Positions 31,595 through 63,814 are shown, counted from the stretch's first letter. The stretch: DNA of 64,000 nucleotides from a virus (IMGVR_UViG_3300032282_001105:8306-72305), one strand, 5' to 3'. Notes: generated from the sequence alone by a model not told the origin. Made by a program: numbers and translations.

Positions 31595-31744
31595 ATGAAT
31601 AATACTACAGAAAATAAACCTGAAACTAAACCGGAAGTTGGACCAAAACCCAACGAATCCGGAGGTTTCTATTTTTCATCTTTTCTAAAAATAACGGATC
31701 CAAACACAAAAGAAGTTTTGGTTCAAACACGGGGCGATAACTAA
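31595..31744 (+). CDS. Small 49-aa protein (MNNTTENKPE...FLKITDPNTKEVLVQTRGDN)
   Basis: Below the ORF-track cutoff. Fills the gap exactly, TAAATA at 31584-31589 upstream, TAATG coupling to the next gene, and shares the FLKIxDPN motif with it. Confidence 0.75.
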   Translation: MNNTTENKPETKPEVGPKPNESGGFYFSSFLKITDPNTKEVLVQTRGDN

Positions 31745-34960: not shown

Positions 34961-35266
34961 ATGGATACCAAAACCTTACTTACTGAGGCGAAAGCTAGAT
35001 TCAATCTCAACAGTGCAAAAGCACAATTAAAAGACAAATATGATGGCAAGCTTATTATTGCCAGTCAAGGTGGCTTGTGGAAAGCTGACCAACAAACAAT
35101 TAATTTCTTATCTAGTTTTGATACCGAAACTGTAATTTTAATAGATACTTTTGATAGTCCTGTAACTGTTGATAGAGTTGCATTATTAGATAAATTGAAA
35201 AATTTATATTCCGATGTAATGACAGCTTGGCACGATGAATATAAAGAGATAGAGAATACACGATGA
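34961..35266 (+). CDS. Hypothetical protein
   Basis: 101-aa ORF with AGGAG RBS and ATGA coupling to the next gene. Confidence 0.75.
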   Translation: MDTKTLLTEAKARFNLNSAKAQLKDKYDGKLIIASQGGLWKADQQTINFLSSFDTETVILIDTFDSPVTVDRVALLDKLKNLYSDVMTAWHDEYKEIENTR

Positions 35267-36066
35267 GCAGAGGTGCAATATTATTTGCGTTCAACTCACC
35301 TAAATTTGACTATTATAAAATGGCGGTTGCAACAGCAAAAAGAGTTAATCACTTTTTGGATATACCAGTCACTGTTGTGACTGACAAATCTTCTGTATCT
35401 AATGACCTGTATCAATTTGATAAAACAATATTAGTTGAACCCGATAAAAGCAATAATAGGGATTGGGGAATGTGGATTAATAAAGGGCGATATCAAGCAT
35501 ATGAATTAAGCCCATATGACGAAACACTATTACTTGATACTGACTATATGGTCAATTCAAATAAAACATTAGATATCTTTAATTATTATGATGACTTCTC
35601 CTGTCACAATAAAACAAACTTTTTGATGCAACCGAGCTTACCGCAAGAAGTACTAAGCGTCTATAGCTTTGAAACATTGTGGGCAACCGTTGTTGCATTT
35701 AAAAAATCAAACCGTGCTAAACAGATATTTGATTGTTTGGAAATGATTCAAAAGAATTTCAATCATTATGCAGAGATACACGGTTTTGTGTCTGGTACAT
35801 ATAGAAATGATTATGCACTAACATTAGCATTAAGAATAGTTAACGGTCATTCTTCAATTAAAAGAGATTTCATTCCCTGGAATTTAGTTCATTTGGGACA
35901 ACGAAATGTACATATCTATCGAAATAATGATGACGAATTCAATACAGAATATACCGTTACATATGATAATCATCAGCGTGGCAAAATTCGTAAAGAATAC
36001 ATTACTATTAAAGATTTCGATTTCCACGTAATGAATAAAGATAATTTTCTGGAGTTAATAGAATGA
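35263..36066 (+). CDS. GT-A fold glycosyltransferase-like protein (GT8-like)
   Basis: SPYDETLLLDTD (DxD motif) and RNDYAL. Confidence 0.65.
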   Translation: MSRGAILFAFNSPKFDYYKMAVATAKRVNHFLDIPVTVVTDKSSVSNDLYQFDKTILVEPDKSNNRDWGMWINKGRYQAYELSPYDETLLLDTDYMVNSNKTLDIFNYYDDFSCHNKTNFLMQPSLPQEVLSVYSFETLWATVVAFKKSNRAKQIFDCLEMIQKNFNHYAEIHGFVSGTYRNDYALTLALRIVNGHSSIKRDFIPWNLVHLGQRNVHIYRNNDDEFNTEYTVTYDNHQRGKIRKEYITIKDFDFHVMNKDNFLELIE

Positions 36067-36836
36067 CAAGAGGCTTTGTAATTATGGCACAAAACACAGA
36101 AAAAACAGACTATGTTAAATGTGCTAAAGCTTTAGAACTAAGCATTAAACGTGTTATGCCAAATGCAAATGTAACTATCATAACAACAGATATGTTACCA
36201 CACGGAGATGTTGTCCCTGATAGTGATTGGAAACTAGCTAACGATTGGCAAGTATATGAAGCAAGCCCGTATGATGAAACTATTAAACTAGAAGCAGATA
36301 TGTTCATACCAAGAAATATTGAACATTGGTTTGATATTTTAAGTATACAGGACGTGGTGCTTTGTACAAAAATACGTAATTATAAAAGTGAGATATCAAC
36401 TAATCGGTCTTATAGAAAGTTCATAGATGATAACAATTTACCTGATGTATATAATGCAATTACATATTTTAAAAAATCAGAAACAGCAGAACAGTTTTTT
36501 AATACAGTAAGAAATATATTTGAAAATTGGGAAGACTATAAAACAATATTAAGATGCAAACCACAGGAAGAAGTATCTACTGATTGGGCATACGCTATAG
36601 CTAGTCATTTAATCGGTAGAGAAAAAACGACTCTTCCCAATTTTGATGAATTGTCAATGGTACATATGAAGCAGTATATTAATGGAACTAACACAGAAGA
36701 TTGGACTGATACTTTAATATATGAATGTTTATCGGATGTTATTAGAGTAAACACATATACACAGATGTATCCATTCCACTATCATTCAAAGTCATTTAGT
36801 GATAAAATACTAGAGAGGTACAAATGGAACACATAA
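36063..36836 (+). CDS. Glycosyltransferase-like paralogue
   Basis: SPYDETIKLEAD, paralogous to the upstream gene, with ExD in place of DxD. Confidence 0.6.
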   Translation: MTRGFVIMAQNTEKTDYVKCAKALELSIKRVMPNANVTIITTDMLPHGDVVPDSDWKLANDWQVYEASPYDETIKLEADMFIPRNIEHWFDILSIQDVVLCTKIRNYKSEISTNRSYRKFIDDNNLPDVYNAITYFKKSETAEQFFNTVRNIFENWEDYKTILRCKPQEEVSTDWAYAIASHLIGREKTTLPNFDELSMVHMKQYINGTNTEDWTDTLIYECLSDVIRVNTYTQMYPFHYHSKSFSDKILERYKWNT

Positions 36837-37156
36837 TTATATGGGAACCAAAACCGTTAGAAAAGCCTGAATTTAGATTATATTATGATGATAAAGGTAA
36901 GGCACTTTTTTATAGTTGTGAAAAACCTGAAGGCAATTACATTGTTATTGATGCTACAACGTATGCAATTGGTAAACCCGATGTAAGAGTCATTGATGGA
37001 AAAATCTCAACAGTTACACCCGAAGCAGTTGTTTCAAAATTAATGCCAAGCGATGAAGGTGTTACCTGTACTGAAGAAGATATAAGTATAGTGGTTGATG
37101 ATAACTATACAGAAAAAACTATTAAATGGAAATTAACTACATATGAACTCGGATGA
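36824..37156 (+). CDS. Hypothetical protein
   Basis: 110-aa ORF overlapping both neighbours in the operon. Confidence 0.7.
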   Translation: MEHIIIWEPKPLEKPEFRLYYDDKGKALFYSCEKPEGNYIVIDATTYAIGKPDVRVIDGKISTVTPEAVVSKLMPSDEGVTCTEEDISIVVDDNYTEKTIKWKLTTYELG

Positions 37157-38096
37157 TATTATTGATGTAGCAGATTTAGATTGCATTTATCTAAGCTACG
37201 ATGAACCACAAAAAGAAGAATTCTGGCTTAAGATTAAACATATGGTGCCTTGGGCTAAACGTGTTGACAATGTTAAAGGTAGTGATGCCGCACACAAAGC
37301 CGCAGGTGAAGCTAGTGATACTGAACGCTTCATTCTAATCGATGGCGATAATATGCCAGATGAATCATTCTTTAATATTCAACTTGATTTTACAGATAAA
37401 GATGAGACATTCCGTAAAGCACAGTTTCGTTGGAAAGCAATTAACTCTATCAATGGATTACGCTATGGCAATGGTGGAATGAGTTCTTGGACAAAAACAT
37501 ATGTACGTGAAATGCAAACACACGAACATCAAACTGATGGTGATGAATCACGTATTGCTGATTTTTGCTTAGATAGCAAAGATAATTTGTATTGGGCAAT
37601 GTATAACTGTTATTCAACAACGTATCCCAATCATACACCATTTCAAGCTTGGCGTGCAGGTTTCCGCGAAGGTGTGAAGATGAGTTTGAATCGCGGTCTA
37701 CGTCCATCAGTAGATGAATTTAAAGAAACAGTAGCTACACGCAATCTAAACAATCTTACTGTTTGGCACAACATTGGGGCTGATGTTGAGAATGGTATGT
37801 GGGCTATATATGGTGCAAGACTTGGAACATATATGACTATGCTTACTGAATGGGATGTACATAATGTTCAATGGTTTGATAACTATATCACATTGTGGGA
37901 AGAACACGAACATAGAGATCCTGCAATTGAAGCCGAATTATTAGGCACAGCACTAAGCGATAAATTAGGTTTGCCTATGTGTATTCATAGCCCTGAACAA
38001 AGCAAATTCTTTAAGCGTCATTACAAGGCTGATTTTAAAAATAAAGATCCTCTTGTAACTGAAATGGATGTGATTCGTAGTATTGAGGGCTGGTGA
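37143..38096 (+). CDS. GT-A fold glycosyltransferase-like protein
   Basis: IYLSYDEP, AAHKAAG...FILIDGD (DxD), NGLRYGNGG, AWRAGFRE. Confidence 0.6.
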   Translation: MNSDDIIDVADLDCIYLSYDEPQKEEFWLKIKHMVPWAKRVDNVKGSDAAHKAAGEASDTERFILIDGDNMPDESFFNIQLDFTDKDETFRKAQFRWKAINSINGLRYGNGGMSSWTKTYVREMQTHEHQTDGDESRIADFCLDSKDNLYWAMYNCYSTTYPNHTPFQAWRAGFREGVKMSLNRGLRPSVDEFKETVATRNLNNLTVWHNIGADVENGMWAIYGARLGTYMTMLTEWDVHNVQWFDNYITLWEEHEHRDPAIEAELLGTALSDKLGLPMCIHSPEQSKFFKRHYKADFKNKDPLVTEMDVIRSIEGW

Positions 38097-38704
38097 TGGA
38101 ATGGTATACTCACCACTCGGACAAATATACTGAATGGAATTTATATTTAAATTCGATAGAGAAATATTTTAATGTATGTAAAGATAACACTGTTTTAGAA
38201 ATAGCACCGTTGTTTGGTACACATACTAATTTAATTAAACATCACGGTGCTAAACAAATTACATTTGTTGAAATAAATGACAATGCAGTAAATGCGGCAT
38301 TACCCAACACGCATCCAGATTGTGAACTAATTATAGGTGATATATTTTCATACTTGTCAACTCCTAAAAAATTTGACGTAGTTGTGTGTTGCGGATTACT
38401 TTATCATCTGCACTCTCCGTTATATCTATTAGAATTGATTGCAAATAACATAGCACCTAAATTTATTATGTTAGAAACTTTTCCTTATAATCACGAAAAG
38501 ATGCACCACGCTTTAGTAAAAATTGAAGAAAATGAATCGTTACCTGATTGGAAAACGTGTGGTATTAAACTTGGTTTGGATCAAGAAATTTTTATAATTG
38601 CTATGAAAAATTTAGGGTATAAGTTAATAACAAGTGATACTAATATTACTAAGCCATCAAATCCTGATGCTGATTTGTTTTTAGGAGTGTTTGAAAAAAT
38701 ATGA
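38096..38704 (+). CDS. Class I SAM-dependent methyltransferase
   Basis: VLEIAPLFG motif I, ITFVE, GDI, FDVVVCCGLLYHL. TGATG coupling. Confidence 0.8.
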   Translation: MEWYTHHSDKYTEWNLYLNSIEKYFNVCKDNTVLEIAPLFGTHTNLIKHHGAKQITFVEINDNAVNAALPNTHPDCELIIGDIFSYLSTPKKFDVVVCCGLLYHLHSPLYLLELIANNIAPKFIMLETFPYNHEKMHHALVKIEENESLPDWKTCGIKLGLDQEIFIIAMKNLGYKLITSDTNITKPSNPDADLFLGVFEKI

Positions 38705-40266
38705 GCGGAGAATACGACCAATTTGCTAGAGATATGCGTGACCGCTTGAATGCGGTCAGTCCATCTTTGTGTCTTGCTAAATGGCAACAGGTAAGTTTGC
38801 ATTTACCTAGCGGACTAACACAAAGTTGCTATCATCCACCGACACATAAAATTCCATTAGAATTATTAGAAAGTAAACCCAGTACATTACATAATACTCC
38901 TATTAAAATACAAGAACGTAAGGAGATGCTTGCAGGTAAACGTCCTAGTGGTTGTGCTTATTGTTGGAAAGTAGAAGATGCAAAAAGTGATGACCCAAAC
39001 GGTCATTTAAGTGATAGACATTATCGTAGTAGCGAATGGTGGAATGCCCCAACATTTGAAGAAGTAACACAAAACTCATTTGACTATGACGTAACACCTA
39101 GATATGTAGAAGTTAATTTCAATCAGGCCTGCAACTTCAAGTGTATGTATTGTAGCCCCCATCTTTCTACTAGTTGGGAAGAAGAAATTAAAAAACACGG
39201 TGGTTATCAATTAACCAATATGGTTCATAATAATATAGAAGCACTTGAAAAAAGTGGATTGATGCCACTTAAAGTAGCAAACAAAGACAATCCATATGTT
39301 GACGCTTTCTGGAAATGGTTCCCTGAAATCTATCGCAAACTACGTGTGTTTAGAATGACAGGTGGTGAACCACTTATGGACAAGAACACATTCAAAGTGT
39401 TAGATTACGTGAATGAAAATCCTCACGGTCAGCTTGAGTTATCCATCACAAGCAATATGTGCCCGCCCGATCAGAAGTTATTTGATAAGTTTGTTGAAAA
39501 AGTCAAAGCTATTGAAACATTACGCACATACGAAGATAAAGAAAACTTTAATGAATTCAGCGGCAATCATTGGTATGTAGATAAAGGATTCAAACACTTT
39601 TGGTTGTTTGTATCACTTGACGGATTTGGTGAACAAGCTGAATATATGCGTACTGGTTTAGAGTTTGACCGAATGTTAAACAATGTACGTACTTTCTTAC
39701 GTGAGACAAAATATTCTACTGTGAGCTTTATCAACACATTTAACATAATGTCTATACCAAGCTTACATAAATTTTTAGCTATGGTCTTAGAATTACGTGC
39801 AGAGTTTGGTGGAAGAAGTCAAGTTGAGTTTGAGATTGCACCCGATCAAACTGATACTGAAAAAGAAAATAACATTGTTCACAAAGTTTACAAACAAAAG
39901 AAGTTTCAACGTGTATTTTTTGACATTCCAATCTTACGATATCCGCCGTGGTTCAGTATACAGAACAGTGGACAATATGGCATTGATGAAGTAGAACGTT
40001 GTTTAAAATATATGGAAGACAATGTACAAGATGATGACTATTTGGAAACATTCGAGGGTTTTAAACCATATGAGATATTGAAAATTAAGCGAGACCTTGC
40101 TATAATGAAAGAATCTCTACCCCAAGAACAATTGTTACTAAATAAGAAGAACTTCTATATGTTTATTACTGAATATGATAGACGTAGACAAACGAATTTT
40201 ATGGAAACATTCCCCGAATTAAAAGGATATTGGAGAGAATGTATCAAAGCACATACCAAACATTAA
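38701..40266 (+). CDS. Radical SAM protein 1, N-terminal twitch/SPASM-like domain
   Basis: CNFKCMYC, TGGEP; N-terminal CLAKW..SCYH..CAYCW. Confidence 0.92.
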   Translation: MSGEYDQFARDMRDRLNAVSPSLCLAKWQQVSLHLPSGLTQSCYHPPTHKIPLELLESKPSTLHNTPIKIQERKEMLAGKRPSGCAYCWKVEDAKSDDPNGHLSDRHYRSSEWWNAPTFEEVTQNSFDYDVTPRYVEVNFNQACNFKCMYCSPHLSTSWEEEIKKHGGYQLTNMVHNNIEALEKSGLMPLKVANKDNPYVDAFWKWFPEIYRKLRVFRMTGGEPLMDKNTFKVLDYVNENPHGQLELSITSNMCPPDQKLFDKFVEKVKAIETLRTYEDKENFNEFSGNHWYVDKGFKHFWLFVSLDGFGEQAEYMRTGLEFDRMLNNVRTFLRETKYSTVSFINTFNIMSIPSLHKFLAMVLELRAEFGGRSQVEFEIAPDQTDTEKENNIVHKVYKQKKFQRVFFDIPILRYPPWFSIQNSGQYGIDEVERCLKYMEDNVQDDDYLETFEGFKPYEILKIKRDLAIMKESLPQEQLLLNKKNFYMFITEYDRRRQTNFMETFPELKGYWRECIKAHTKH

Positions 40267-40267
40267 A

Positions 40268-41722
40268 ATGTCATCAAAAAAATATAACGAATCTTTTTCA
40301 GAATACAAAGCAAGATTAATTGACCCAGTAAGTGAAAGCTTTTGTGCCGCTAAATGGCTCAATGCTACTATCTGGTTGGGTAATGGTCAAACAACAAGTT
40401 GTCATCATCCACCTGGCCATCAGATTAATGCAGCCGAATTAGCAACTAATCCTACAGCAATTCACAATACACAACATAAAAAACTTATGCGTGAGATGAT
40501 GCAAATTGGCAAGAGACCAAAAGAATGTGAATACTGTTGGAAAATTGAAGATATGGAACGCGGTGCAATGAGCGACCGTGTTTATAAAACTGCGGTATTT
40601 GATGAAGCTGATATTAACAAAGCGGCACATAGTGATTGGCAAGATAACACAATGTTAAAAACATTGGAGATCAGTTTTGACCGTACGTGCAATTTTGCTT
40701 GTAGTTATTGTAATCCAAGTTTTAGTACAACGTGGGTAAAAGATATTAACAAGTTTGGTCCCTACAAAAACCTCGAGGGTGATGCAAGAGACCATTTTAA
40801 TAATGCCGCCGAGTCTGCTAAGCCTATACCAGATGAACAGAATCCATATACACAGGCTTTTTGGAAGTGGTGGGAAATGCCAAATGGTTTAGCTGATAAC
40901 CTAGAAGAAATACGTATTACAGGTGGTGAGCCATTAATGGCACCAGGCGTATGGAAATTATTCGAATGGTTCAGAGACAATCAACAACGTGTAATGAATA
41001 GACCTGATGGTAAAGTTATGCGTTTTGCTATCAATACTAACTTAGTACCTAGCGATGAGATTATGGATAGACTTATACAACTAAGTCACTATGTGCCCCA
41101 TTTAGAAATCTATACTAGCTGTGAGAGTTTTGGCCAACACGCACAATATATTCGTGACGGATTTGATTGGAACAAATGGATTCACAATTTACAAAGACTT
41201 CATAAAGAAAGTAATGTGAAAAAGACACATATGATGATGACTGTTAACAGTCTATGTCTTGCTAGTATTGTGCCTTTTATGGATCAAATGATTACATTTA
41301 AACAATTATATGATTCAATGTTCCCTATAATGACACTTAACATTTTACGATTTCCTAGTTTTCAGAGTTGTGTAGTGTTACCGGATCACATTAGAGAAAA
41401 ATATAGAAATGAATTACAAATTTGGTTGAACAATCAGATACAAATGAATCTTCATAATAGTAAAGGTGAGCCTTTATTATTACAAATGGAACGTGAACAC
41501 GTGCAAAGATTGATTGATTATTTGGATGTAGTGAAAACACCACATAGATATATGTCAGATATTGAAGTAACACGTAGAGATTTTAAACAATTCTATCATC
41601 AATATGATATTCGTAGAGGTAAGAATTTTAGAGCAACTTTCCCTCCTGAGTTTGTGCAATTTTATGATAGTATAGATGCACAATTGTCCCCACCAGAACA
41701 AATACTATCCGGTATTAATTAA
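40268..41722 (+). CDS. Radical SAM protein 2
   Basis: CNFACSYC, TGGEP; CAAKW..SCHH..CEYCW. Confidence 0.92.
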   Translation: MSSKKYNESFSEYKARLIDPVSESFCAAKWLNATIWLGNGQTTSCHHPPGHQINAAELATNPTAIHNTQHKKLMREMMQIGKRPKECEYCWKIEDMERGAMSDRVYKTAVFDEADINKAAHSDWQDNTMLKTLEISFDRTCNFACSYCNPSFSTTWVKDINKFGPYKNLEGDARDHFNNAAESAKPIPDEQNPYTQAFWKWWEMPNGLADNLEEIRITGGEPLMAPGVWKLFEWFRDNQQRVMNRPDGKVMRFAINTNLVPSDEIMDRLIQLSHYVPHLEIYTSCESFGQHAQYIRDGFDWNKWIHNLQRLHKESNVKKTHMMMTVNSLCLASIVPFMDQMITFKQLYDSMFPIMTLNILRFPSFQSCVVLPDHIREKYRNELQIWLNNQIQMNLHNSKGEPLLLQMEREHVQRLIDYLDVVKTPHRYMSDIEVTRRDFKQFYHQYDIRRGKNFRATFPPEFVQFYDSIDAQLSPPEQILSGIN

Positions 41723-41734
41723 CAAGAGAAAATT

Positions 41735-43255
41735 ATGGCAAGAGATTATAGCAAAAAAGAAACATACAAAGAGTTTAAGATTAGAGTCATCGATGATGTA
41801 TCTAAAACATATTGTGGGGCTAAATGGTATAATGCTACCATATGGTTGGGACATGGGCAAACTACAAGTTGCCATCACCCACCGGCACACAAAATTGATA
41901 TTAAAGAGATTGAAACAAATCCTTCTGCTATTCATAATACCCCTCATAAAAAATTAATGCGTAAGTTAATGCAAGAGGGGGAACGCCCTAATGAGTGTGA
42001 ATACTGCTGGAAAGTAGAAGATATGAACCGAGACGCAGTTTCGGATCGTGTATTTAAAACTCATATCTATTCTGATGAAGATATCTATGCTAGTGCCAAG
42101 ATGCCGTGGAATGCTGATGTTGAATTAAAAACTTTAGAAATCAGTTTTGACCGTACGTGTAATTTTGCTTGCTCATACTGTAACCCTGCATTCAGTACTA
42201 GTTGGGTACGTGATATTAAAAAACACGGTTCTTACAAAAATATCTTGTCTGATGGCCGTGGTCACTTTATTGATACAGCACCTTGGGCGGCTAGTGCAGG
42301 TGAATCAGATGATGACAATCCATACATTCAAGCATTCTGGAAGTGGTGGAATAGTTCATTACAAGATAACTTAGAAGAAATTCGTATTACAGGTGGTGAG
42401 CCATTAATGGCTCCTTCTGTTTGGAAGCTGTTTGAATGGTTTAAAGATAATCCAGAGAAGGCTAAAAAATTACGATTTGCAGTTAATAGTAATTTAGTTC
42501 CTAAGAAAGAAATTTTAGATAAACTAATTGAGATGAGTCATTTTGTACCACACTTAGAGATTTATACGAGTGGTGAAGCAAAAGGCCCACATAGCGAATA
42601 CATACGTGATGGTATGGAATATAAACAATGGTGGGAAAATCTACATAGATTACATACTGAGGGTAATATTCATTCTACACATATGATGATGACTATCAAT
42701 AGTTTGTGTCTTGCTAGTATTACTGAATTTATGGATGACGTATTAGAATTCAAACGTACACATAACACACGTAGTCCAACTATGAGTTTAAATATTTTAC
42801 GTTTCCCTAGTTTCCAAAGTTGTGCTATCTTACCAGATAGTATGAAACAGCATTATAAAGAAAAATTGCAAGCTTGGTATGATGAACAGTTAGCAAAAGA
42901 TGAACGTGTTAACATTGGTTGGATGGCTCCTATTCTTACAGAGGGTGAAAAGAATCAAATTGAACGTTTGATTGAATATCTTGATGTAGTTAAAACACCT
43001 CATCGTAATACAGCAGAACAACCTAAGTTATATAATGACTTCAGGGCATTCTATGAACAGTATGATGAACGTAGAGGTAAAAACTTTAGAGCTACATTCC
43101 CTCAAGATTATGTTGATTTCATTAATAGTTGTGAAATTATTGGCGGTGATAGTATTCGAGGCGAAGATCCTGCAACAACAGAAGCTGGTTATGTGAGTGA
43201 TGAAGTAGCACACGGTTGGGATGTTGATAACGACAGTTTGGGAAAAAATGTTTAA
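41735..43255 (+). CDS. Radical SAM protein 3 (close paralogue of protein 2)
   Basis: CNFACSYC, TGGEP; CGAKW..SCHH..CEYCW. Confidence 0.92.
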   Translation: MARDYSKKETYKEFKIRVIDDVSKTYCGAKWYNATIWLGHGQTTSCHHPPAHKIDIKEIETNPSAIHNTPHKKLMRKLMQEGERPNECEYCWKVEDMNRDAVSDRVFKTHIYSDEDIYASAKMPWNADVELKTLEISFDRTCNFACSYCNPAFSTSWVRDIKKHGSYKNILSDGRGHFIDTAPWAASAGESDDDNPYIQAFWKWWNSSLQDNLEEIRITGGEPLMAPSVWKLFEWFKDNPEKAKKLRFAVNSNLVPKKEILDKLIEMSHFVPHLEIYTSGEAKGPHSEYIRDGMEYKQWWENLHRLHTEGNIHSTHMMMTINSLCLASITEFMDDVLEFKRTHNTRSPTMSLNILRFPSFQSCAILPDSMKQHYKEKLQAWYDEQLAKDERVNIGWMAPILTEGEKNQIERLIEYLDVVKTPHRNTAEQPKLYNDFRAFYEQYDERRGKNFRATFPQDYVDFINSCEIIGGDSIRGEDPATTEAGYVSDEVAHGWDVDNDSLGKNV

Positions 43256-52580: not shown

Positions 52581-52584
52581 TTAA

Positions 52585-55633: not shown

Positions 55634-55665
55634 TTACATACTTATAAAAAACGCTAAGTAATTGT

Positions 55666-58600
55666 ATGCTAAGAGATGTATTTTATTTCGGAGAAAAACC
55701 CAACGTTCACCCTAGAGAAAGATATGCAATAGATTTAGCCGACGCTAAACGACAATGCACTACTGAACATTTTTGGGTAATTAACGACCATTGCAATTAT
55801 AAAGATTTTGATTGGGACTGGGATTTTGATTTCCTACCTGATGAAGATGTATGGGCAGAAGACCATAACAATGTATGGCCTAGTCCTTATCAGAAAGATA
55901 GTGGCACTTGGCTTTGTTCAACTAATATAGATGCATTAACTATATATAGGGGAGATGTTGATCCTATTCCACTAAAAGATGAGATTGTATCAAATTGGAA
56001 AATCATCGAATATATTGAAAAAGATAAATTTGATTTCAAATGGCATCCAGACCCAACTGACCCACCTTACATATATGTATTCGGTAATGAATGGTATCCT
56101 GCTACTGTTATGCCAACAGTAGAATATCACGTTCCGGGCGCAACAGAACGTAAATACACAACAGACCAGATAGCGCAGTTATTGCCTATGCCAATGCTGT
56201 TTAATATTATACACGAACCTGAGCATTTTGATTATAGTTGGAGACCTGATCCTACTAGTCCCCCATACATATATGTGTTTGGTAATAATCAATATCCTGC
56301 GAGTGTGATGCCGACTGTTGAATTTCACGTTGAAGGTGCAACAGAGCGTAAGTACATTGAAAATATAGTTCCTAAATTAGCGGCAAAACCAGATTCATTC
56401 GAGTTCTTAGAAGATATTGATCCGTCATCCTTTGATATGTCTTGGGTACCAGATCCAACTAGTCCACCTTATATCTATGTATGGGGTAATCAATGGAATA
56501 AGCCTGAGTTTAAAATTAGTGTGCAACATAAAGTTGAAGGTGCAACTGAATATAAGTATATGGAACCACGTGTGAAGCGTAAATCCTGTATGGACAATTG
56601 GGATATACCTCCTAATATGTTTCAAAATACATTTGACTTTAGTTGGGAACCTGATCTATCTAAATATGACCCTCCATTCATTTATCAATTTGGATCACAG
56701 TGGCAGAAGACAGGCGGCCCTCGATATGTAGTGCCCGGTGCAACAGAAATAAAATATATTGATACATTAAAAGCAAATGTTGTTTGTACAGAATTTCAAA
56801 ATTGGCAAGTGCCCCGCAATATTGACCAAACTAAGTTTGACTTTAGCTGGCATCCAGATAGTACTGAAGAACCTTATATCTATCAGTTCCCGGATCAATG
56901 GACTAGAACAGGCGGCCCTCGATATGTAGTGCCCGATGCAACAGAAATAAAATATATTAATGTACAAATAGCAACAGCAAAACAAGATAAAACTCATTGG
57001 ACAATACCAGAGGGTATTGATACAACTGACTTTGACTTTAGTTGGCACCCCGATATTGAACACGAACCTTTAATATATCAATTTGGTACTCAGTGGCAGA
57101 AGACAGGTGGCCCTAAGTTCTATGCTGTGGGTTGTACAGAATCTAGTGATATTAAATACGTTGATGTTACTAAAGCAAAAGCAATTGCCAATATGAATAA
57201 TTGGGTAATACCTGAAGATTTAGATATTGATACGTTTGATTTTAGTTGGCATCCTGATAGCACTGAAGAACCTTATATCTATCAATTTGCCGATCAATGG
57301 ACACGTACCGGCGGACCTAAATACGTAGTTGATAGTGCTATAGAAATAAAATATATTGACACAGTAAAAGGTATAACTAAAGCAAATAAAAAACACTGGA
57401 CGATACCTAAAGGTATCGATACTACTGACTTTGACTTCAGTTGGCATCCTGATATTGATCATGAACCTTTAATATATCAATTTGGTACACAATGGCAACG
57501 CACCGGCGGCCCGACTTATAATACATTAGGTACTGATGAAAATAGTGATATTGCATACGTAGATATTATTAAAGCTAAAGCATTACCCAATACAACCAAT
57601 TGGCAAACATTAATCCCTGTAACAGGGTTTGATTATAGTTGGCATCCTGACAGTACAGAAGAACCCTTCATTTATGTATTTGGCAATCAATGGAATAGGG
57701 GTGAACTTGAAGCTACTTTGATTTATACAGTGCCCGGAGCGACACAAACAAAATATATTAATGATATTGTTCGTGTTGCACCATATACATCTGGGTGGTC
57801 TACCCTAGTTGACATTGAAGATTTTGACTATAGTTGGAGACCTGACCCAACTAGTCCGCCTTACGTATATGTATTTGGTAATAAACAATATAGCGGTGTA
57901 ATTATGCCTACTGTAAAGTTGACTATACCCGATGCAACTGATAACAAGTATGTAGATGATGTTGTAGCTACTATAGCGCAGAAGCCAGCTCTTTTCACAG
58001 ATACATCATTAATTAAAGATTTTGACTATAGTTGGAGACCTGATCCAACTAGCCCACCTTACATATATCAATTTGGTACACAGTGGGCAAAAACAAATGG
58101 TCCTAAGTTTGTAGTAGAAGGCGCAGAAGAAACTAAGTTTGTTAGTGAACCACTTGCTACTATCTTACCAGATATGACGCATTGGGAAATACCTGAAAAT
58201 GCAGATGTAACTAAGTTTGACTTTAGTTGGCATCCTGATATGACTAGTCCACCATACATATATCAATTTGGTACACTACTTGATGATAAAGATGGCCCTA
58301 GATATATCACACCTGGACACAATGATGTTGTTGTTAACTTAGAACGTAAAGAGATTATACTTGAAGAACTAGTATTTCCTAAGTACCAGTTAAAAACTAC
58401 GTTAGAAGATTTGATTGAAGAACATACAGGTGAAATCTTTTGGGCATTGAATCCAGATTTAGATTACTCTGATTTTGATTTTATGTGGGTACCCGACAAA
58501 CAAAACGTATATCACGTTAATGCGTTCGGTAGTAAAGATAATATAAACTCACAAACTTATTTTGTTAACGGTAAGATGTGGCAAAAAGGTTATAGAGATA

Positions 58601-60369
58601 TCAATTACGTTGAAGATAAAATCGTTGAAGTTCGTACCAAACTTGATATGTTTTTCATAGATAAAGGTAATAGTGAATCACAAGATAGATTCCAAGAACT
58701 GCGTTTGAGATTTCCTAACATTACTAAAACAAGATACCTAAACAGTTGGGTAGATACTATTAATCGTTGTATTACTAAATCAAGTACTAATCTGTGCTGG
58801 ATACTAAACAGTGAATTAGATTATAGTGAATTTGAATTTGACTTCTACCCCAGCCCTTGGCAAATGAGAATGGTACACGTTTTTGGCACTCAATGGAGTC
58901 ACTGGGGAACTACATTTATGGTTAATAAAAATAGTTTCAGCGAGGATACAAAATATGTTAAAATCATTGAACACCTTAGCAATCTAAACTTTGTTAAACG
59001 TAATACTGCCAAAGCTACAAATTGTTTATATGATATCGCTCTTATAGATCACGGCAATACTGAAATTGAAAATGTAAGTGAAATTATTAAAAACAAAACA
59101 GGACGTAATACTACTACTGTTAAGTACAATAGAAGCTATTTACAGACTTTTAAGACGTTGTTAAAAGACATTCAGCCTAAGAAAGAACATTATCTTTGGG
59201 TTTGTTCTAGTATATGTGATTATGAATATTTTGACTTTAGTTACATTTGTGATCCATATGCTAGAGACCAGCTTCACGTTTTTCCTAGCGATAAACAGAA
59301 GTTTGGAGACACGTTTTTAATTGATGTTAACAAATTTAAATTATTAATTGATGATATGATTATGTTAGAAGATTATGAGAAAGTTAACTATAATCAACAT
59401 CAAAGAGTTAAGCGATTACCTGCACCAACTATTATTACGAAAGAAGATACCCATGTCACTAATATTCATACTGATTATAATTGGCCTTATGCTACGTTTA
59501 TCACGGAAAACGACAAAGACATTCAAGTAACTGATGTTGAACCTATGAGTTTATGGACTCCTGATAGTAAGAATATCATTATTACTAGTACGGGAGCAAC
59601 TCGCATCATTGTGCCAAAAGAGGCAAAGTATTATGTTGAACACGAATTATATGATTATCCATACATCAGTCGCTCTAACAAACTTGTACAATCTCAGCCG
59701 CTGGATATAGTCTTCCTAAGCAACGGTGAAACTGGAGCTGACGAGAACTACAAACACTTACTGAAAGTGACTAAGGGATTGAAAAACAGAGTTGTTAGAG
59801 TAGACGGTGTTGACGGTCGTGTTCAAGCATATCACGCAGCCGCTGAAGCAAGTAATACTCCTTGGATGTTTACTGTGTTTGCTAAATTAAGAGTCAATAA
59901 TAAATTTGATTGGAGTTGGCAACCTGATAGATTGCAAATACCTAAACATTATATTTTTAATGCTACTAACCCTGTAAATGGTTTAGTGTATGGTCACCAA
60001 GCTATGATTGCTTATAATAAGACTATAACACTTGCTAATAAAGGTAGAGGTCTTGACTTCACATTGGATGATGAACACGAAGTAGTTGATATGAACAGTG
60101 GTGTAGCAATGTATAACACCGATGAGTGGAGTACATGGCGCACAGCATTTAGAGAAGCATTGAAGTTACGTGCAAGCGATAGCCAAGATAGTAGAGACAG
60201 ATTAGATAATTGGTTAAACGTAGGCGAAGGTGCATTTGCCAACTATAGTACTGATGGTGCTAATCACGCAATCGAATACTATAATGAAGTTAACGGCGAC
60301 CTAGATAAATTACGTTTAAGTTACGATTGGCCTTGGTTAAAAGAATATTACAAGAAAAAATACAAATAA
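55666..60369 (+). CDS. 1567-aa protein with tandem ~65-aa FDxSWxPD repeats and C-terminal GT-A-like domain(s)
   Basis: Repeats are visible in the translation. The C-terminus aligns by eye with the 37143-38096 product. Confidence 0.75.
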   Translation: MLRDVFYFGEKPNVHPRERYAIDLADAKRQCTTEHFWVINDHCNYKDFDWDWDFDFLPDEDVWAEDHNNVWPSPYQKDSGTWLCSTNIDALTIYRGDVDPIPLKDEIVSNWKIIEYIEKDKFDFKWHPDPTDPPYIYVFGNEWYPATVMPTVEYHVPGATERKYTTDQIAQLLPMPMLFNIIHEPEHFDYSWRPDPTSPPYIYVFGNNQYPASVMPTVEFHVEGATERKYIENIVPKLAAKPDSFEFLEDIDPSSFDMSWVPDPTSPPYIYVWGNQWNKPEFKISVQHKVEGATEYKYMEPRVKRKSCMDNWDIPPNMFQNTFDFSWEPDLSKYDPPFIYQFGSQWQKTGGPRYVVPGATEIKYIDTLKANVVCTEFQNWQVPRNIDQTKFDFSWHPDSTEEPYIYQFPDQWTRTGGPRYVVPDATEIKYINVQIATAKQDKTHWTIPEGIDTTDFDFSWHPDIEHEPLIYQFGTQWQKTGGPKFYAVGCTESSDIKYVDVTKAKAIANMNNWVIPEDLDIDTFDFSWHPDSTEEPYIYQFADQWTRTGGPKYVVDSAIEIKYIDTVKGITKANKKHWTIPKGIDTTDFDFSWHPDIDHEPLIYQFGTQWQRTGGPTYNTLGTDENSDIAYVDIIKAKALPNTTNWQTLIPVTGFDYSWHPDSTEEPFIYVFGNQWNRGELEATLIYTVPGATQTKYINDIVRVAPYTSGWSTLVDIEDFDYSWRPDPTSPPYVYVFGNKQYSGVIMPTVKLTIPDATDNKYVDDVVATIAQKPALFTDTSLIKDFDYSWRPDPTSPPYIYQFGTQWAKTNGPKFVVEGAEETKFVSEPLATILPDMTHWEIPENADVTKFDFSWHPDMTSPPYIYQFGTLLDDKDGPRYITPGHNDVVVNLERKEIILEELVFPKYQLKTTLEDLIEEHTGEIFWALNPDLDYSDFDFMWVPDKQNVYHVNAFGSKDNINSQTYFVNGKMWQKGYRDINYVEDKIVEVRTKLDMFFIDKGNSESQDRFQELRLRFPNITKTRYLNSWVDTINRCITKSSTNLCWILNSELDYSEFEFDFYPSPWQMRMVHVFGTQWSHWGTTFMVNKNSFSEDTKYVKIIEHLSNLNFVKRNTAKATNCLYDIALIDHGNTEIENVSEIIKNKTGRNTTTVKYNRSYLQTFKTLLKDIQPKKEHYLWVCSSICDYEYFDFSYICDPYARDQLHVFPSDKQKFGDTFLIDVNKFKLLIDDMIMLEDYEKVNYNQHQRVKRLPAPTIITKEDTHVTNIHTDYNWPYATFITENDKDIQVTDVEPMSLWTPDSKNIIITSTGATRIIVPKEAKYYVEHELYDYPYISRSNKLVQSQPLDIVFLSNGETGADENYKHLLKVTKGLKNRVVRVDGVDGRVQAYHAAAEASNTPWMFTVFAKLRVNNKFDWSWQPDRLQIPKHYIFNATNPVNGLVYGHQAMIAYNKTITLANKGRGLDFTLDDEHEVVDMNSGVAMYNTDEWSTWRTAFREALKLRASDSQDSRDRLDNWLNVGEGAFANYSTDGANHAIEYYNEVNGDLDKLRLSYDWPWLKEYYKKKYK
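56030..58310 (+). repeat. Twelve well-conserved intragenic tandem repeats (~200 bp unit)
   Basis: FD[FY]SW[HR]PD...P[YFL]IY[QV]FG...[GD]ATE.KY recurs 12 times. 56710-56760 and 56908-56958 match at 50 of 51 nt. Confidence 0.85.
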
Positions 60370-61269
60370 ATGAAAAATATTTTAGTAATAGGCGGCAGTG
60401 GCTATATAGGAAATAGATTAGTTAATCACTTAAGTGAAAAATTTAATTGTCACACAGTAGACCTTAATTGGTTTGGTGGTCCTACTAGTACTTTCACACA
60501 AGATTATTCTACACTAACACCAGACCTGTTAGGTATCTATAGTCACGTAATATTGTTAGCTGGTCACAGTAGTATGGCTATGTGTGAATACAATTGGCAA
60601 GGTGCTTGGCAAAACAATATTGTGAATTTAGCAAGTTTAATAGGTAAACTAAACAAAAACCAAGTATTGATTTATGCTAGTAGCGGATCAGTATACGGCA
60701 ACGGTGGGTTGAATCGTACAGAAAATATGAGTCTTGCTTCTGCATTAGTTGAATATGATTTAACTAAACAGATAGGTGAACAAATAGCAACAGGTGCTGT
60801 ATGTAAAACAGTAGGATTAAGATTTGGTACGCTAAGTGGGTTCGCTAATTATGCAAGAAATGATTTAATGTTAAATGCAATGGTAATTAGTGCCAAGACT
60901 AAAAACAAGATTGAATGCTTTAATGGGCATAATCATAGAAGCATATTGGGAATCAATGATTGTGTTCGTGCTATAGAATCAATAATTAGTCAAAGTGAAT
61001 TATTGGAACAACACGATATTTTTAATCTTGCTAGTTTTAACGGAACTGTTGAAAATTTTGTTGACATATCTAGTAAATTGCTTGATGTTCCTGTTATTAA
61101 ACACGAAAAAATAACTAACACCTTTAGTTTTGAGCTAAATTGTAATAAGTTCATTCATAAATTTAACTTTTCTTTTACCGATACCCCAAACTCAATTATT
61201 AACAGTTTGGTTGAAAAATATGAATCTATTGAATGGAGTCCCAGAATTAAGAAAGTTTTATATGTATGA
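60370..61269 (+). CDS. NAD-dependent epimerase/dehydratase/reductase (extended SDR)
   Basis: GGSGYIG, YASSGSVYG, YDLTK (YxxxK), LRFGT. Confidence 0.9.
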   Translation: MKNILVIGGSGYIGNRLVNHLSEKFNCHTVDLNWFGGPTSTFTQDYSTLTPDLLGIYSHVILLAGHSSMAMCEYNWQGAWQNNIVNLASLIGKLNKNQVLIYASSGSVYGNGGLNRTENMSLASALVEYDLTKQIGEQIATGAVCKTVGLRFGTLSGFANYARNDLMLNAMVISAKTKNKIECFNGHNHRSILGINDCVRAIESIISQSELLEQHDIFNLASFNGTVENFVDISSKLLDVPVIKHEKITNTFSFELNCNKFIHKFNFSFTDTPNSIINSLVEKYESIEWSPRIKKVLYV

Positions 61270-62443
61270 GTCTTTAACACGCTGTCTTTGTTGTGATAAT
61301 TCACAACTTTTTACCATATTAGATTTAAATACGCAACCACCCGCTAATAGTTTTCATAACCCAAATGAAAATATACCTGAGTATGAATTAAAATTAATGG
61401 GTTGTGATAACTGCTGGCACACACAGTTAAGTGTAGCAGTTGACCCAGATGAATTATTTAAAAATTATTTATATGTTAGTGGGACCAGTAGCACGTTAAA
61501 ACAATACTTTGACAGATTTGCAGTACGTTATACAGATGTACCTGGTAAGGTTTTAGATATTGCGTGTAATGATGGAACACAGTTAGATAGTTTTGCTGAA
61601 TTAGGGTGGGACACATATGGCGTAGACCCTGCAGAAAATCTATTTAGTAGTAGTACTAGCAAAGAACATCAGGTTAAATGTGATTTTTGGAACATTAATT
61701 CTGCCATCGATATGCCTGTATTTGATTTAATTACGGCACAAAATGTATTTGCTCATACTGCAAAAATATCAGAATTTTTAGAAGCTTGTAAATTAGTAAT
61801 GAATAATAATTCAAAATTAGTTATACAAACTAGTCAGGCATTGATGTTTGATAGGAATGAATTTGATACAATATACCACGAACATATTAGTTTTTTCAGT
61901 ACACTAAGTATGAAAACTATTGCAGAAAGACAAGGGTTGTATTTAAACAATGTGTATACAACTGATATACACGGTACTAGTTATGTATTTGAATTGTCTA
62001 AAGTTTCCAATGAACAACCTTCTGTTGAAAAACAATTAGAACTAGAACAGCATAGATATAAAAGAAGTTTTTATGATAGCTATCAAAAAAATGCAATGAC
62101 TTGTTTAAAGTCTTTGAAAGACTATATTAGTGTGCAACGTTCTTCTGGTAAAAAAGTGATAGGGTACGGAGCTGCCGCAAAAGGAATGACTGTTATTAAT
62201 GCAGGAAATCTATCATTTGATTATATTGTAGATGACAACCCATTAAAACAAGGTTTGTTATGTCCGGGTAGTAATATACCAGTCTATGGCCCTCAACAAT
62301 TAGATACAGAGAATTCTGATATAATTATTATACCATTAGCTTGGAATTTTTTTGATGAAATTAAATCTAAAGTAAAACAATTAAGACCAAATAAAGCTGA
62401 TACTTATGTAAGATATTTTCCTGAATTAAGATTCGACTTTTAA
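61262..62443 (+). CDS. NDP-sugar C-methyltransferase (TcaB9/TylCIII/NovU family)
   Basis: Zn-binding CLCC...CDNC, YLYVSGTS, VLDIACNDG, FDTIYHEH, GYGAAAKG, PLAWNF. Start likely the Met at 61262. Confidence 0.88.
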   Translation: MYESLTRCLCCDNSQLFTILDLNTQPPANSFHNPNENIPEYELKLMGCDNCWHTQLSVAVDPDELFKNYLYVSGTSSTLKQYFDRFAVRYTDVPGKVLDIACNDGTQLDSFAELGWDTYGVDPAENLFSSSTSKEHQVKCDFWNINSAIDMPVFDLITAQNVFAHTAKISEFLEACKLVMNNNSKLVIQTSQALMFDRNEFDTIYHEHISFFSTLSMKTIAERQGLYLNNVYTTDIHGTSYVFELSKVSNEQPSVEKQLELEQHRYKRSFYDSYQKNAMTCLKSLKDYISVQRSSGKKVIGYGAAAKGMTVINAGNLSFDYIVDDNPLKQGLLCPGSNIPVYGPQQLDTENSDIIIIPLAWNFFDEIKSKVKQLRPNKADTYVRYFPELRFDF

Positions 62444-63346
62444 TAGTTCTGGATATTGTGTGAAGAATCTATCAATTTCATACTGAGTAGCGTAAGGTGG
62501 ATATCCAAACTGAGTCCATCTACTAGGATCATATGGTAATCGTTTAATAGTTCCATCAGGGTTAGCTACTTGGTCATAGTACGGTTTATTGAAATCGTAC
62601 CAAGAAGAATGACTATTCATTTTTTTATTTAATGTTGCATCTATGTTTGCACTAGCGTGATGAATTTTTAAATGAAATTTACCATCACTTTTAATATTAA
62701 ACGTTTCTATATTTACACCTATTATTTTATTATACGAATAGAATTGTGATTGTTGTGATTGAATATTTAAAAGATATGGAATATTAATGTGGCTAAATTT
62801 ATTGGTATATTTTAAATATATCATAAATTCAAAATCATCAAAGTGAGTAACAACATAGTTGTCATCAAAGTAACAATCTTTTTCATACATTGCTTGAGGA
62901 TTGAATCCTACTAAATTACCTAAATTATGTAAATCGTGTTTGAACACATCCATTGGTTCAGGTCTATTCCAAAAGTTCCATAGTTGTTGTGGCCAACATC
63001 CGAATGTTGTTGATCCATAATGTTTTGCAAAATCACTAGTTATAATTAACGGTGTAGCATTATCCATTTCAACATCAGCTTGCATTAAAACAGCATGGTC
63101 TAGGCCCATCTTTTGTGCTACTTTAAATATCCAATTATATCCACCAGCAGATCCTATATTATATTCACTGGCATAGTAAATCATATCATTAACCTTACAC
63201 CAATATTTCATTAGAGGTTGGTTACCATTGTCTAACACAACAAATTTAATATTATTGGTTTTGAAATGCTCCTGTACAAATTTTACAGGATAAAATTGCC
63301 ACCATAATAGTTGTTCGTTATAGGTTAATAAAAATACATAAATCAT
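62426..63346 (-). CDS. GT2-like glycosyltransferase
   Basis: VFLLTYN, VVLDNG, NIGSAGGYN, MQADVE, FDDNY...FDDFEF. TAAATA on the minus strand at 63359-63354. Confidence 0.7.
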   Translation of the reverse strand: MIYVFLLTYNEQLLWWQFYPVKFVQEHFKTNNIKFVVLDNGNQPLMKYWCKVNDMIYYASEYNIGSAGGYNWIFKVAQKMGLDHAVLMQADVEMDNATPLIITSDFAKHYGSTTFGCWPQQLWNFWNRPEPMDVFKHDLHNLGNLVGFNPQAMYEKDCYFDDNYVVTHFDDFEFMIYLKYTNKFSHINIPYLLNIQSQQSQFYSYNKIIGVNIETFNIKSDGKFHLKIHHASANIDATLNKKMNSHSSWYDFNKPYYDQVANPDGTIKRLPYDPSRWTQFGYPPYATQYEIDRFFTQYPELLKVES

Positions 63347-63372
63347 ATTAACTTATTTAGACCCAAAAGTAG

Positions 63373-63472: not shown

Positions 63473-63495
63473 TAAGGAGATTGAATAAATACTAG

Positions 63496-63801: not shown

Positions 63802-63814
63802 GTCTTTTTATGAT

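Follow-up and report, generated by a model that had tools for sequence, protein, structure and literature searches.

A giant freshwater phage carries, directly behind genes inferred to encode tail fibres, a tightly packed block of glycosyltransferase-like (GT-like) and sugar-tailoring genes with ten diverged radical SAM (rSAM) paralogues, which most likely builds a heavily edited sugar decoration, with the virion fibres as the best guess for its target. The block lies at positions 34961 to 63346 of the window, the whole 64,000-nucleotide stretch analysed (IMGVR_UViG_3300032282_001105:8306-72305). Sugar chemistry is well supported, whereas the product is inferred from gene content and the acceptor from synteny, the absence of membrane segments and analogy.

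Gene content and layout

We first checked an earlier note, made from the sequence alone, which had described 24 mostly translationally coupled genes, lying immediately after the tail-fibre genes, for five GT-like proteins, two methyltransferases, ten radical SAM enzymes, two SGNH-like proteins, a carbamoyltransferase, a 2OG oxygenase and an SDR. What the note observed is confirmed: 23 protein ORFs lie on the plus strand from 34961 to 62443 and one on the minus strand (62426-63346), to which we add a conserved 34-residue peptide gene (52577-52681) that the note had missed. Of the 23 junctions among the 24 co-directional genes, 18 overlap, 4 are 0-12 nt and 1 is 32 nt. The position after the tail-fibre genes is correct by location and by the Ser+Thr content of the two preceding proteins, although their fibre identity is itself inferred. 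The genes, with locus counts out of 80 related loci, are:

31744..32364 (+), 206-aa protein between the giant ORF and the fibre-like genes; homologues in 6 of 80 loci, always in this position
32397..33953 (+), fibre-like protein (518 aa, 23.4% Ser+Thr); weak Peptidase_G2 intramolecular-chaperone match below cut-off; AGATAAATA motif 25 nt upstream
33963..34913 (+), fibre-like protein (316 aa, 28.2% Ser+Thr); candidate acceptor (inferred)
34961..35266 (+), conserved 101-aa protein of unknown role (a101), first gene of the block; 24 of 80 loci
35263..36066 (+), GT8-like GT-A protein (GTb), paralogue of the next; invariant D-x-D
36063..36836 (+), GT8-like GT-A protein (GTc)
36824..37156 (+), conserved 110-aa protein of unknown role (d110); 15 of 80 loci
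37143..38096 (+), member of an unnamed, predicted GT-A-fold family (GTe317, or GTe); signature gene of the module, 50 of 80 loci
38093..38704 (+), class I SAM methyltransferase; rare accessory, 1 of 80 loci
38701..40266 (+), N-twitch radical SAM R1; most conserved orthogroup (56 tips in 49 loci)
40268..41722 (+), N-twitch radical SAM R2, sister of R3
41735..43255 (+), N-twitch radical SAM R3
43255..44469 (+), N-twitch radical SAM R4
44466..45848 (+), N-twitch radical SAM R5; orthogroup in 31 loci
45830..47107 (+), N-twitch radical SAM R6; no Pfam hit, NF033640 229.9 bits
47104..48294 (+), N-twitch radical SAM R7
48295..49458 (+), N-twitch radical SAM R8; rare lineage (4 loci), in a patch that diverges between near-identical strains
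49451..50689 (+), N-twitch radical SAM R9; rare lineage (3 loci)
50686..51861 (+), N-twitch radical SAM R10; orthogroup in 33 loci
51858..52580 (+), SGNH/GDSL-type hydrolase or acyltransferase 1
52577..52681 (+), conserved basic 34-aa peptide ending in DPFIYK; 21 of 80 loci
52678..53514 (+), SGNH-type protein 2 (G-C-S first block); the listed ORF starts at TTG 52585, but ATG 52678, overlapping the peptide's stop, is the likelier start
53511..55007 (+), NodU/CmcH-type carbamoyltransferase (CarbT)
55007..55633 (+), 2OG-Fe(II) oxygenase-like protein (prolyl-hydroxylase-type fold, predicted); accessory cassette
55666..60369 (+), 1567-aa protein with 13 tandem ~66-aa repeats (FDFSWHPD...PYIY.FG), then a C-terminal GTe317-like domain; 33 of 80 loci
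60370..61269 (+), SDR, NAD-dependent epimerase/dehydratase family
61211..62443 (+), NDP-hexose C-methyltransferase type; the TTG start overlapping the SDR by 59 nt is doubtful
62426..63346 (-), GT2-like protein, convergent with the operon

The radical SAM array

All ten ORFs between 38701 and 51861 scored 190.8-356.6 bits over the full-length model of NCBIfam NF033640 (N_Twi_rSAM, twitch domain-containing radical SAM protein), above the curated cut-off of 170. The CxxxCxxC motif (C118, C122, C125) and GGE motif (G174-G175-E176) are invariant, as are four N-terminal cysteines (C7, C26, C64, C67) in all 10 and in 48 sequences, and Pfam SPASM matches lie at residues 5-110, ahead of Radical_SAM, in 4 of the 10. 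The paralogues are only 17-27% identical to R4 and fall in at least 8 deep lineages shared with other phages, and are therefore old, individually maintained functions. Ten members in one operon is at the top of the range seen (1-10 per locus in 80 loci). The family is only catalogued, and a literature search by accession, name and related terms found no studied member.

In Foldseek comparisons, the AF2 model of R4 (pLDDT 90.8) had BlsE, which acts on a sugar nucleoside, as its nearest solved fold (E 4e-6), followed by CteB, anSME, SuiB, MoaA and viperin. No solved structure was closer than TM 0.39. BlsE, BtrN and anSME share the core fold and an auxiliary cluster, but their auxiliary domain is C-terminal and here it is N-terminal, and identity is 14-17% at TM 0.35-0.39, so that no reaction can be transferred.

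Fold neighbours with SPASM/twitch domains include peptide maturases (CteB, SuiB, SkfB, anSME), and such enzymes are best known for peptide substrates. We therefore considered whether the rSAMs act on a peptide or protein instead of sugars, either modifying the fibre proteins directly (cross-links, epimerisation) or turning the 34-aa peptide into a small glycosylated product in the manner of mycofactocin, whose pathway combines a peptide, a SPASM radical SAM enzyme, a GT2 and a methyltransferase. The near-invariant peptide and the resemblance of the 2OG oxygenase-like protein to protein prolyl hydroxylases would fit this. However, the peptide travels with the carbamoyltransferase (found in 19 of the 22 loci that hold the carbamoyltransferase) and not with the rSAM array, and is absent from the minimal core, as in Ralstonia phage RsoM2USA; no PqqD-like recognition domain was detected in the small ORFs or the rSAMs; and the rSAM family co-occurs with GTs in bacteria too. 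We regard this reading as unlikely.

Glycosyltransferase-like and tailoring proteins

The five GT-like assignments rest on remote evidence. The profile of the 36063 family hit the N-terminal half of glycogenin-1 over 100 residues at E 1.8e-4, whereas the 35263 family, with D92-x-D94 invariant, had no PDB hit but is its paralogue (hhalign 99.8%); neither gave a Pfam match. For the 37143 protein, an AF2 model (pLDDT 88.2) matched HAS, BcsA, RmlT, TarP, SunS and A64R in Foldseek with probability up to 0.99 and E 2e-4, although TM was only about 0.3 to solved GT2 enzymes; viral GTs matched in BFVD, and D67-G-D69 is invariant. Its family did not reach the gathering threshold of Pfam GT2 (PF00535; best E 0.021-0.061 in 1-3 of 28 members) and is therefore GT-A-like but not a recognised GT2 member. 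The C-terminus of the 1567-aa repeat protein is homologous to 37143, and 4 of 74 homologues of the minus-strand protein carry PF00535.

The carbamoyltransferase matches Carbam_trans_N and Carbam_trans_C (113.2 and 161.5 bits), the SDR matches PF01370, and the 61211 protein carries Methyltransf_13 (Zn-binding, 50.4 bits), Methyltransf_23 (57.5 bits) and Methyltransf_14 (98.6 bits), as in TylC3-type NDP-hexose C-methyltransferases; all three are sugar-tailoring families. A profile of both SGNH proteins plus 5 homologues hit GDSL/SGNH structures (best E 1.8e-7), with Ser (S85), Gly, Asn (N112) and His (H260) invariant in the 7 sequences, although the single sequences had no Pfam hit. In the 2OG oxygenase-like protein, HxD...H...RxS (H102, D104, H188, R200) is invariant in 18 sequences and the Atlas model has TM 0.64-0.72 to 2OG-FeII_Oxy_3 (PF13640) clusters, without any Pfam or PDB sequence match.

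No island protein has a TM-like segment, one marginal window being the SGNH catalytic block, and no flippase, polymerase, ligase, GtrA/B-like protein or initiating phosphoglycosyltransferase was seen among the Pfam matches. This speaks against remodelling of the host's surface polysaccharide (O-antigen or capsule) during infection, for example to block superinfection, as does the co-directional, tight linkage with late structural genes, which is late for a protective change of the envelope. On the other hand, GT8 is common in LPS synthesis, carbamoyl, methyl and acyl tailoring is typical of surface glycans, and host O-chain modification was the reading favoured for similar fibre-adjacent cassettes of pelagimyophages (PMC7029224). 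We consider this alternative improbable, though the likeliest of those weighed against virion decoration.

Conservation of the module

We next checked whether the block is linked in relatives, since its scattering had been set beforehand as grounds for rejection. Fibre genes, the two GT8-like genes, GTe317 and the rSAM array recur in the same order in dozens of uncultured phage contigs, the order being fibre-like genes, a101, GTb, GTc, (d110), GTe, R1, further rSAMs, CarbT and the big repeat protein. GTb is followed by GTc in 37 of 37 loci, GTe is directly followed by an rSAM in 29 of 47, and fibre-like genes lie within 2.5 kb upstream of the first GT gene in 17 of 17 loci with at least 3.5 kb of upstream sequence; linkage is hence conserved. 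The core also occurs, unannotated, in cultured RsoM2USA (ORF354-348), downstream of the virion proteins ORF361 and ORF356 identified by mass spectrometry (PMC8504454), in a study that analysed only abundant bands and reports no modification.

Independent sugar context comes from bacteria: in a 253-kb Bacteroidales MAG contig three tandem NF033640 genes abut two GT2 and two GT4-type genes, an arrangement as in polysaccharide loci and in that respect also compatible with a host-surface role, and 6 of 6 tested bacterial proteins of 715-809 aa fuse a GT1 domain to a GTe317 domain.

Linkage to fibre genes also weighs against hypermodification of phage DNA with an elaborate glycan on a modified base. 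Phage GTs that build glycans on DNA are known (Pyle et al. 2024, cited in PMC12619734), all enzymes here appear soluble, and radical SAM and carbamoyl chemistry occur in base hypermodification. However, no hydroxymethylase, kinase or nucleotide-metabolism gene lies in the 72-kb contig next to the block, and the core enzymes are unlike T4-type DNA glucosyltransferases by family search. Because only 17% of the genome is covered, such a pathway elsewhere cannot be excluded, but we hold this reading to be doubtful. Least likely is a free small molecule, such as an aminoglycoside-like or nucleoside-like metabolite made from a host nucleotide sugar and used against competitors or host defences. BlsE, MoaA and viperin, all acting on nucleotides or sugar nucleosides, are among the nearest folds and weak family matches, and carbamoyltransferase, C-methyltransferase and SDR are classic antibiotic sugar-tailoring enzymes, but five transferase-like proteins, including the repeat protein, and strict linkage to fibre genes are hard to explain in this way, and no exporter is present in the island.

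Interpretation

We interpret the block as a cytoplasmic glycan-building and glycan-editing operon belonging to the tail-fibre module of a freshwater jumbo myovirus distantly related to RaK2 and RsoM2USA, a reading held with only even confidence. Gene content, tight coupling, conserved order across many phages, solubility of all products (from the lack of TM-like segments) and intact catalytic motifs were established by the analysis; the enzymatic activities, the glycan and its acceptor are inferred, without any glycan, modified protein or transcript having been observed. In this view, soluble GT-A transferases (two GT8-like, the GTe317 family, the 1567-aa repeat protein and a GT2-like) would transfer sugars from nucleotide sugars, most probably to the Ser/Thr-rich fibre proteins encoded immediately upstream, although the island makes almost no nucleotide sugars itself. 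Each N-twitch enzyme would use a 5'-deoxyadenosyl radical to abstract a hydrogen from a particular sugar carbon, the auxiliary N-terminal cluster handling the electron, to give epimerised, oxidised, deoxygenated or otherwise rearranged sugars. Accessory cassettes would then add a carbamoyl group, O- or N-methyl groups and a C-methyl-branched deoxysugar, handle acyl esters (SGNH) and hydroxylate, and cassette gain, loss and exchange would make the decoration strain-specific. Fitting this less well, the late-type promoter at the island start is a weaker variant, TCTAAATAC.

The earlier note's interpretation is hence supported in part: a sugar-building and sugar-tailoring system is backed by independent lines, whereas attachment of the glycan to the Ser/Thr-rich tail proteins is plausible by inference only. 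Its statement that no characterised phage pathway has this composition agrees with our literature searches, although radical SAM cassettes with GT8 genes beside fibres have been mentioned in print for pelagimyophages.

Comparison with known systems

The chlorovirus PBCV-1 capsid glycan machinery includes A64R, a virus-encoded soluble GT-A enzyme for a virion glycan that ranks 28 among the fold matches of GTe317, but the match is weak (TM 0.26 by query), the virus is eukaryotic and the machinery is not known to include radical SAM enzymes. In mycobacteriophages, phage-encoded glycosyltransferases next to structural genes are reported to decorate virion proteins (Freeman et al. 2023, as cited in PMC12619734), the targets there being capsid and tail tube, not fibres, reportedly without radical SAM, carbamoyl or C-methyl tailoring.

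The host recognition cluster of pelagimyophages and cyanomyophages (Zaragoza-Solas et al. 2020, PMC7029224) is a fibre-adjacent variable region with GT8-type glycosyltransferases and radical SAM gene cassettes that differ between close relatives, and an environmental T4-like genome has 12 radical SAM genes (PMC5332604). Those are T4-like marine phages, whereas this is a RaK2/RsoM2USA-like freshwater jumbo phage, and the papers mention the cassettes in passing, name no family and propose host O-chain modification without test.

In RsoM2USA (MG752970), whose genes here are all annotated hypothetical and not discussed in the paper (0 occurrences of 'radical'), the module is a minimal version, with one rSAM and no carbamoyltransferase, peptide, SGNH or repeat protein. 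Its order is the same: baseplate wedge, giant virion protein, fibre-like gene, a101, two GT8-like genes, small ORF, GTe317 (ORF350, 40% identity), R1 (ORF349) and a second GTe317-like gene.

Genomic setting and composition of the gene block

The window is bases 8306-72305 of a 72,305-base linear IMG/VR virus record. CheckV rates this record as 17% complete, and hence the whole genome is probably several hundred kb. Upstream of the block lie baseplate genes encoding a gp53-like protein, a gp5/V-type spike, gp25 and a 1123-aa wedge protein, the last being 33-34% identical to those of RaK2-like jumbo phages (96 records matched). These are followed by a 5717-aa ORF, a 206-aa ORF and two Ser/Thr-rich fibre-like ORFs with 23.4% and 28.2% Ser+Thr. 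Near-identical DNA occurs in freshwater and lake metagenomes of several studies, with no RNA data set listed for the stretch, and a megablast of 20 kb against cultured phages gave no match. The features considered here are:

14426-31579 (+), a single 5717-aa ORF after the baseplate wedge gene, with 19% Ser+Thr and weak FG-GAP and CBM_5_12 matches
34961-62443, 24 co-directional genes, counting the 34-aa ORF below
38701-51861, ten consecutive radical SAM ORFs (R1 to R10, in order)
52577-52681, a 34-aa basic peptide ORF
62426-63346 (-), one convergent GT2-like gene
63411-63960 (+), a permuted (two-piece) tmRNA gene
63496-63801, a 101-aa ORF inside the intervening segment of the tmRNA gene

We confirmed the earlier note's observation of a tightly packed island of glycosyltransferase-like, radical SAM and sugar-tailoring genes behind the fibre genes. 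Of the 23 junctions between the co-directional genes, 18 overlap, four are 0-12 nt and one is 32 nt. All ten radical SAM ORFs exceed the curated cut-off of NCBIfam NF033640 (190.8-356.6 bits against 170), have their SPASM/twitch-like Cys domain N-terminal of the radical SAM core, and keep four N-terminal Cys, CxxxCxxC and GGE. The class I methyltransferase, the carbamoyltransferase, the SDR and the sugar C-methyltransferase type are firmly assigned by Pfam. Assignment of the two SGNH proteins required a small family profile, which hit GDSL/SGNH structures at E 1.8e-7 with S, G, N and H invariant, whereas a search of solved structures with SGNH 1 alone gave nothing useful. The 208-aa oxygenase-like protein has an invariant HxD...H...RxS pattern and an Atlas model at TM 0.64-0.72 from 2OG-FeII_Oxy_3 clusters, but no sequence-profile hit.

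The earlier note missed the 34-aa peptide ORF, which overlaps the stop of SGNH 1 and ends at the likely true start of SGNH 2. Near-invariant relatives, with E15, K20, K27 and DPFIY invariant, occur in 21 of the 80 related viral loci analysed below, and the peptide is present in 19 of the 22 loci that hold the carbamoyltransferase, abutting that gene or one gene before it. Complex prediction of the carbamoyltransferase with the peptide gave no verdict (0.00, 0.72 and 0.00 in the runs).

Beyond the block, ARAGORN found no tRNA or tmRNA, but Rfam RF04321 identified the permuted tmRNA gene (84.9 bits against a gathering score of 47, E 8.9e-17). Lake metagenome contigs join 63475 to about 63807, and relatives hence lack the insert with the 101-aa ORF; this bin has by far the highest depth of the stretch. 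On the same contig upstream of the window (L098, 5112-6817, minus strand) is a separate pair of a conventional radical SAM with C-terminal SPASM and a short-chain dehydrogenase, next to Rad50/Mre11-like genes and a PDDEXK nuclease, unrelated in position to the island.

Transferase-like proteins

The two GT8-like proteins starting at 35263 (GTb) and 36063 (GTc) are paralogs (hhalign 99.8%). The profile of the second family hits the N-terminal half of glycogenin (GT8) at E 1.8e-4, a remote match, whereas the first family gave nothing useful in searches of solved structures. The 317-aa protein starting at 37143 (GTe317) has no Pfam or PDB sequence match. Its AF2 model (pLDDT 88.2) matches GT-A enzymes, namely hyaluronan and cellulose synthases, RmlT, TarP, SunS and PBCV-1 A64R, with probability reaching 0.99 but TM of only about 0.3, as well as viral GTs in BFVD, and D-G-D is invariant. 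The family has 1533 representative clusters at E<=1e-3 among 1.84 billion. In 6 of 6 tested members of 715-809 aa, an N-terminal GT1 (EryCIII-like / GT28 C-terminal / UDPGT) domain is fused to a C-terminal GTe317-like domain, and the top 150 family members also include 12 tandem double and one triple GTe317 proteins. An apparent GTe317-radical SAM fusion was rejected, being a 223-aa truncated product. The 1567-aa protein has 13 tandem ~66-aa repeats, for which a Protein Atlas search gave no usable hit, and a C-terminal copy of the GTe317 domain. The minus-strand GT2-like gene has 74 homologues, of which four carry PF00535, but searches of solved structures gave nothing useful for it.

Conservation of the module in viral contigs

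We next scanned viral contigs with the radical SAM alignment, which returned at least 600 stretches, at least 598 of them confirmed, and kept 80 loci, whose ORFs were compared with all window proteins. A recurrent order emerged: giant ORF, 206-aa ORF, fibre-like genes, a101 (the conserved 101-aa protein that opens the block), GTb, GTc, in some cases d110 (a conserved 110-aa protein), GTe317, R1, R3, R4, R7, R5, carbamoyltransferase and the big repeat protein. Counts are lower bounds, because each locus holds at most 10 kb on either side of one radical SAM gene and the number of stretches returned is itself a minimum.

Loci, among the 80 compared, with a homologue of each window gene
GTe317, 50
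GTc, 38
GTb, 37
Big repeat protein, 33
Fibre-like genes, 23-25
a101, 24
Carbamoyltransferase, 22
d110, 15
SGNH proteins, 4 and 1
C-methyltransferase, 3
SDR, 1
Oxygenase-like protein, 1
Small methyltransferase, 1
Minus-strand GT, 0

GTb is followed by GTc in 37 of 37 loci, a fibre-like gene lies within 2.5 kb upstream in 17 of 17 informative loci, and GTe317 is directly followed by a radical SAM gene in 29 of 47. Radical SAM genes per locus range from 1 to 10 with a mode of 5-6, the ten of the window being at the top. A FastTree of 336 radical SAM proteins places the ten paralogs in at least eight deep lineages shared with other phages: the R1 clade has 56 tips in 49 loci with support 92, R5 occurs in 31 loci, R10 in 33, R7 in 18, R6 in 7, R8 in 4 and R9 in 3, and R2 is sister to R3. 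Local amplification of one radical SAM gene was rejected, since identities are 17-27% and each paralog has orthologues elsewhere. The paralogs are therefore old and individually kept, not a recent amplification.

The evidence on variation between strains is weak and from contigs only. In a run whose contigs are otherwise 98-100% identical, the piece 47907-51188 (end of R7, R8, R9 and start of R10) has 415 differences in 3279 bases, and a second study shows the same patch. Across contigs of the two studies it is 9-15% divergent, with flanks at most about 2% divergent, which suggests recombination inside the radical SAM array. At 85% likeness, abundant relatives join 54979 to 55666, skipping the oxygenase-like gene, and 60367 to 63396, skipping the SDR, the C-methyltransferase and the minus-strand GT; as the flanking matches are short (26-35 letters), these are only hints of cassette gain and loss.

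The exact motif AGATAAATA, resembling the T4 late promoter TATAAATA, occurs four times on the plus strand (window 2646, 11002, 31581 and 32364), each in an intergenic region ahead of a structural gene, the last before the first fibre-like gene. The island start has only a TCTAAATAC variant, no terminator-like site lies between the fibre genes and the block, and sigma-70 promoters were not enriched (38 found against 34.3 expected). Co-transcription with the fibres is possible, but not shown.

The radical SAM family in cellular genomes

A search of cellular genomes with a single protein of the family gave only four loci, on four genome contigs, while 14 control genomes have no gene above the NF033640 cut-off. 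An uncultured Bacteroidales MAG holds 11 genes above the cut-off in several tandem arrays (contigs C1, C6, C35 and C85). In the one of three retrieved Bacteroidales regions that was annotated (218000-237999 of C1, a 253-kb contig), three of these genes directly abut two GT2 and two GT4-type genes on the same strand. From this gene context, the family is inferred to work also in cellular glycan-type loci.

Interpretation

No island protein has a membrane-like segment, and no flippase, polymerase or initiating transferase is present. We therefore read the block as cytoplasmic glycan assembly on a soluble acceptor, most probably the fibre proteins next door, in which the radical SAM enzymes would act as sugar C-H editors and the accessory genes would provide carbamoyl, methyl, branched-sugar, acyl and hydroxyl tailoring. 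Host-surface remodelling, favoured in PMC7029224, and glycosylation of DNA are rival explanations. The R4 model (pLDDT 90.8) is nearest to BlsE, then CteB, anSME, SuiB, MoaA and viperin, at TM 0.35-0.39, and no reaction can be transferred from these; modification of a peptide or protein, or synthesis of a free metabolite, are further rivals. While gene content and layout are established by our analysis, both target and chemistry are inferences. The note's interpretation, that the phage makes an elaborately modified glycan for its Ser/Thr-rich tail proteins, is supported in part: the sugar-pathway reading is well supported, and the virion target is plausible.

A bolder reading, which our data do not exclude but which we consider unlikely, is that the N-twitch radical SAM enzymes are a new class of glycan editors, each paralog performing a different C-H functionalisation on a sugar of a virion-attached glycan or its nucleotide precursor. 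Phages would shuffle these paralogs as cassettes to write on their fibres a strain-specific 'glycan code' that tunes adsorption or evades host and predator recognition, the same toolkit would operate in bacterial polysaccharide loci, and the 34-aa peptide would be an obligatory small subunit or carrier for the carbamoylation branch.

If the reading holds, a widespread group of environmental giant phages spends up to 28 kb on decorating its particle with sugars edited by radical chemistry, and no characterised glycosylation pathway, viral or cellular, uses chemistry on this scale. It would give a first function to a catalogued but unstudied radical SAM family (at least 598 viral stretches) and to an unnamed glycosyltransferase-fold family, and would add a new layer to how phages vary their host-recognition organelles. 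The enzymes could become tools for sugar editing.

Comparison with other phages

Literature searches on the radical SAM family, and on radical SAM enzymes in connection with phages, fibres, glycans or virion glycosylation, found no studied member and no description of this module, although the supplements of the RsoM2USA and pelagimyophage papers, which these searches did not cover, may list these genes. The exceptions are passing mentions of radical SAM cassettes in pelagimyophage host-recognition clusters (PMC7029224) and of a T4-like genome with 12 radical SAM genes (PMC5332604). Membership in the 'moraphage' lineage was considered but is not shown, as the paper on these phages reports four core GT orthogroups but no radical SAM (PMC12619734). 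The cultured 255-kb Vibrio phage K566 (OZ196521) has, at 161.5-179 kb, five distant relatives of these radical SAM genes (21-24% identity) clustered among hypothetical genes, near a PagP-like gene and a nicotinamide phosphoribosyltransferase, but no GTe317 homologue was found in that record.

Ralstonia phage RsoM2USA (344 kb), a cultured relative, has the core in the same place: wedge protein, giant ORF361 (the counterpart of the 5717-aa ORF), fibre-like ORF355, and then ORF354-348, which are a101, two GT8-like genes, a small ORF, GTe317 at 40% identity, R1 and a second GTe317-like gene. All are annotated hypothetical, and the paper on this phage identified ORF361 and ORF356 in virions by mass spectrometry and does not mention radical SAM. 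The window is a large, accessory-rich example of the module.
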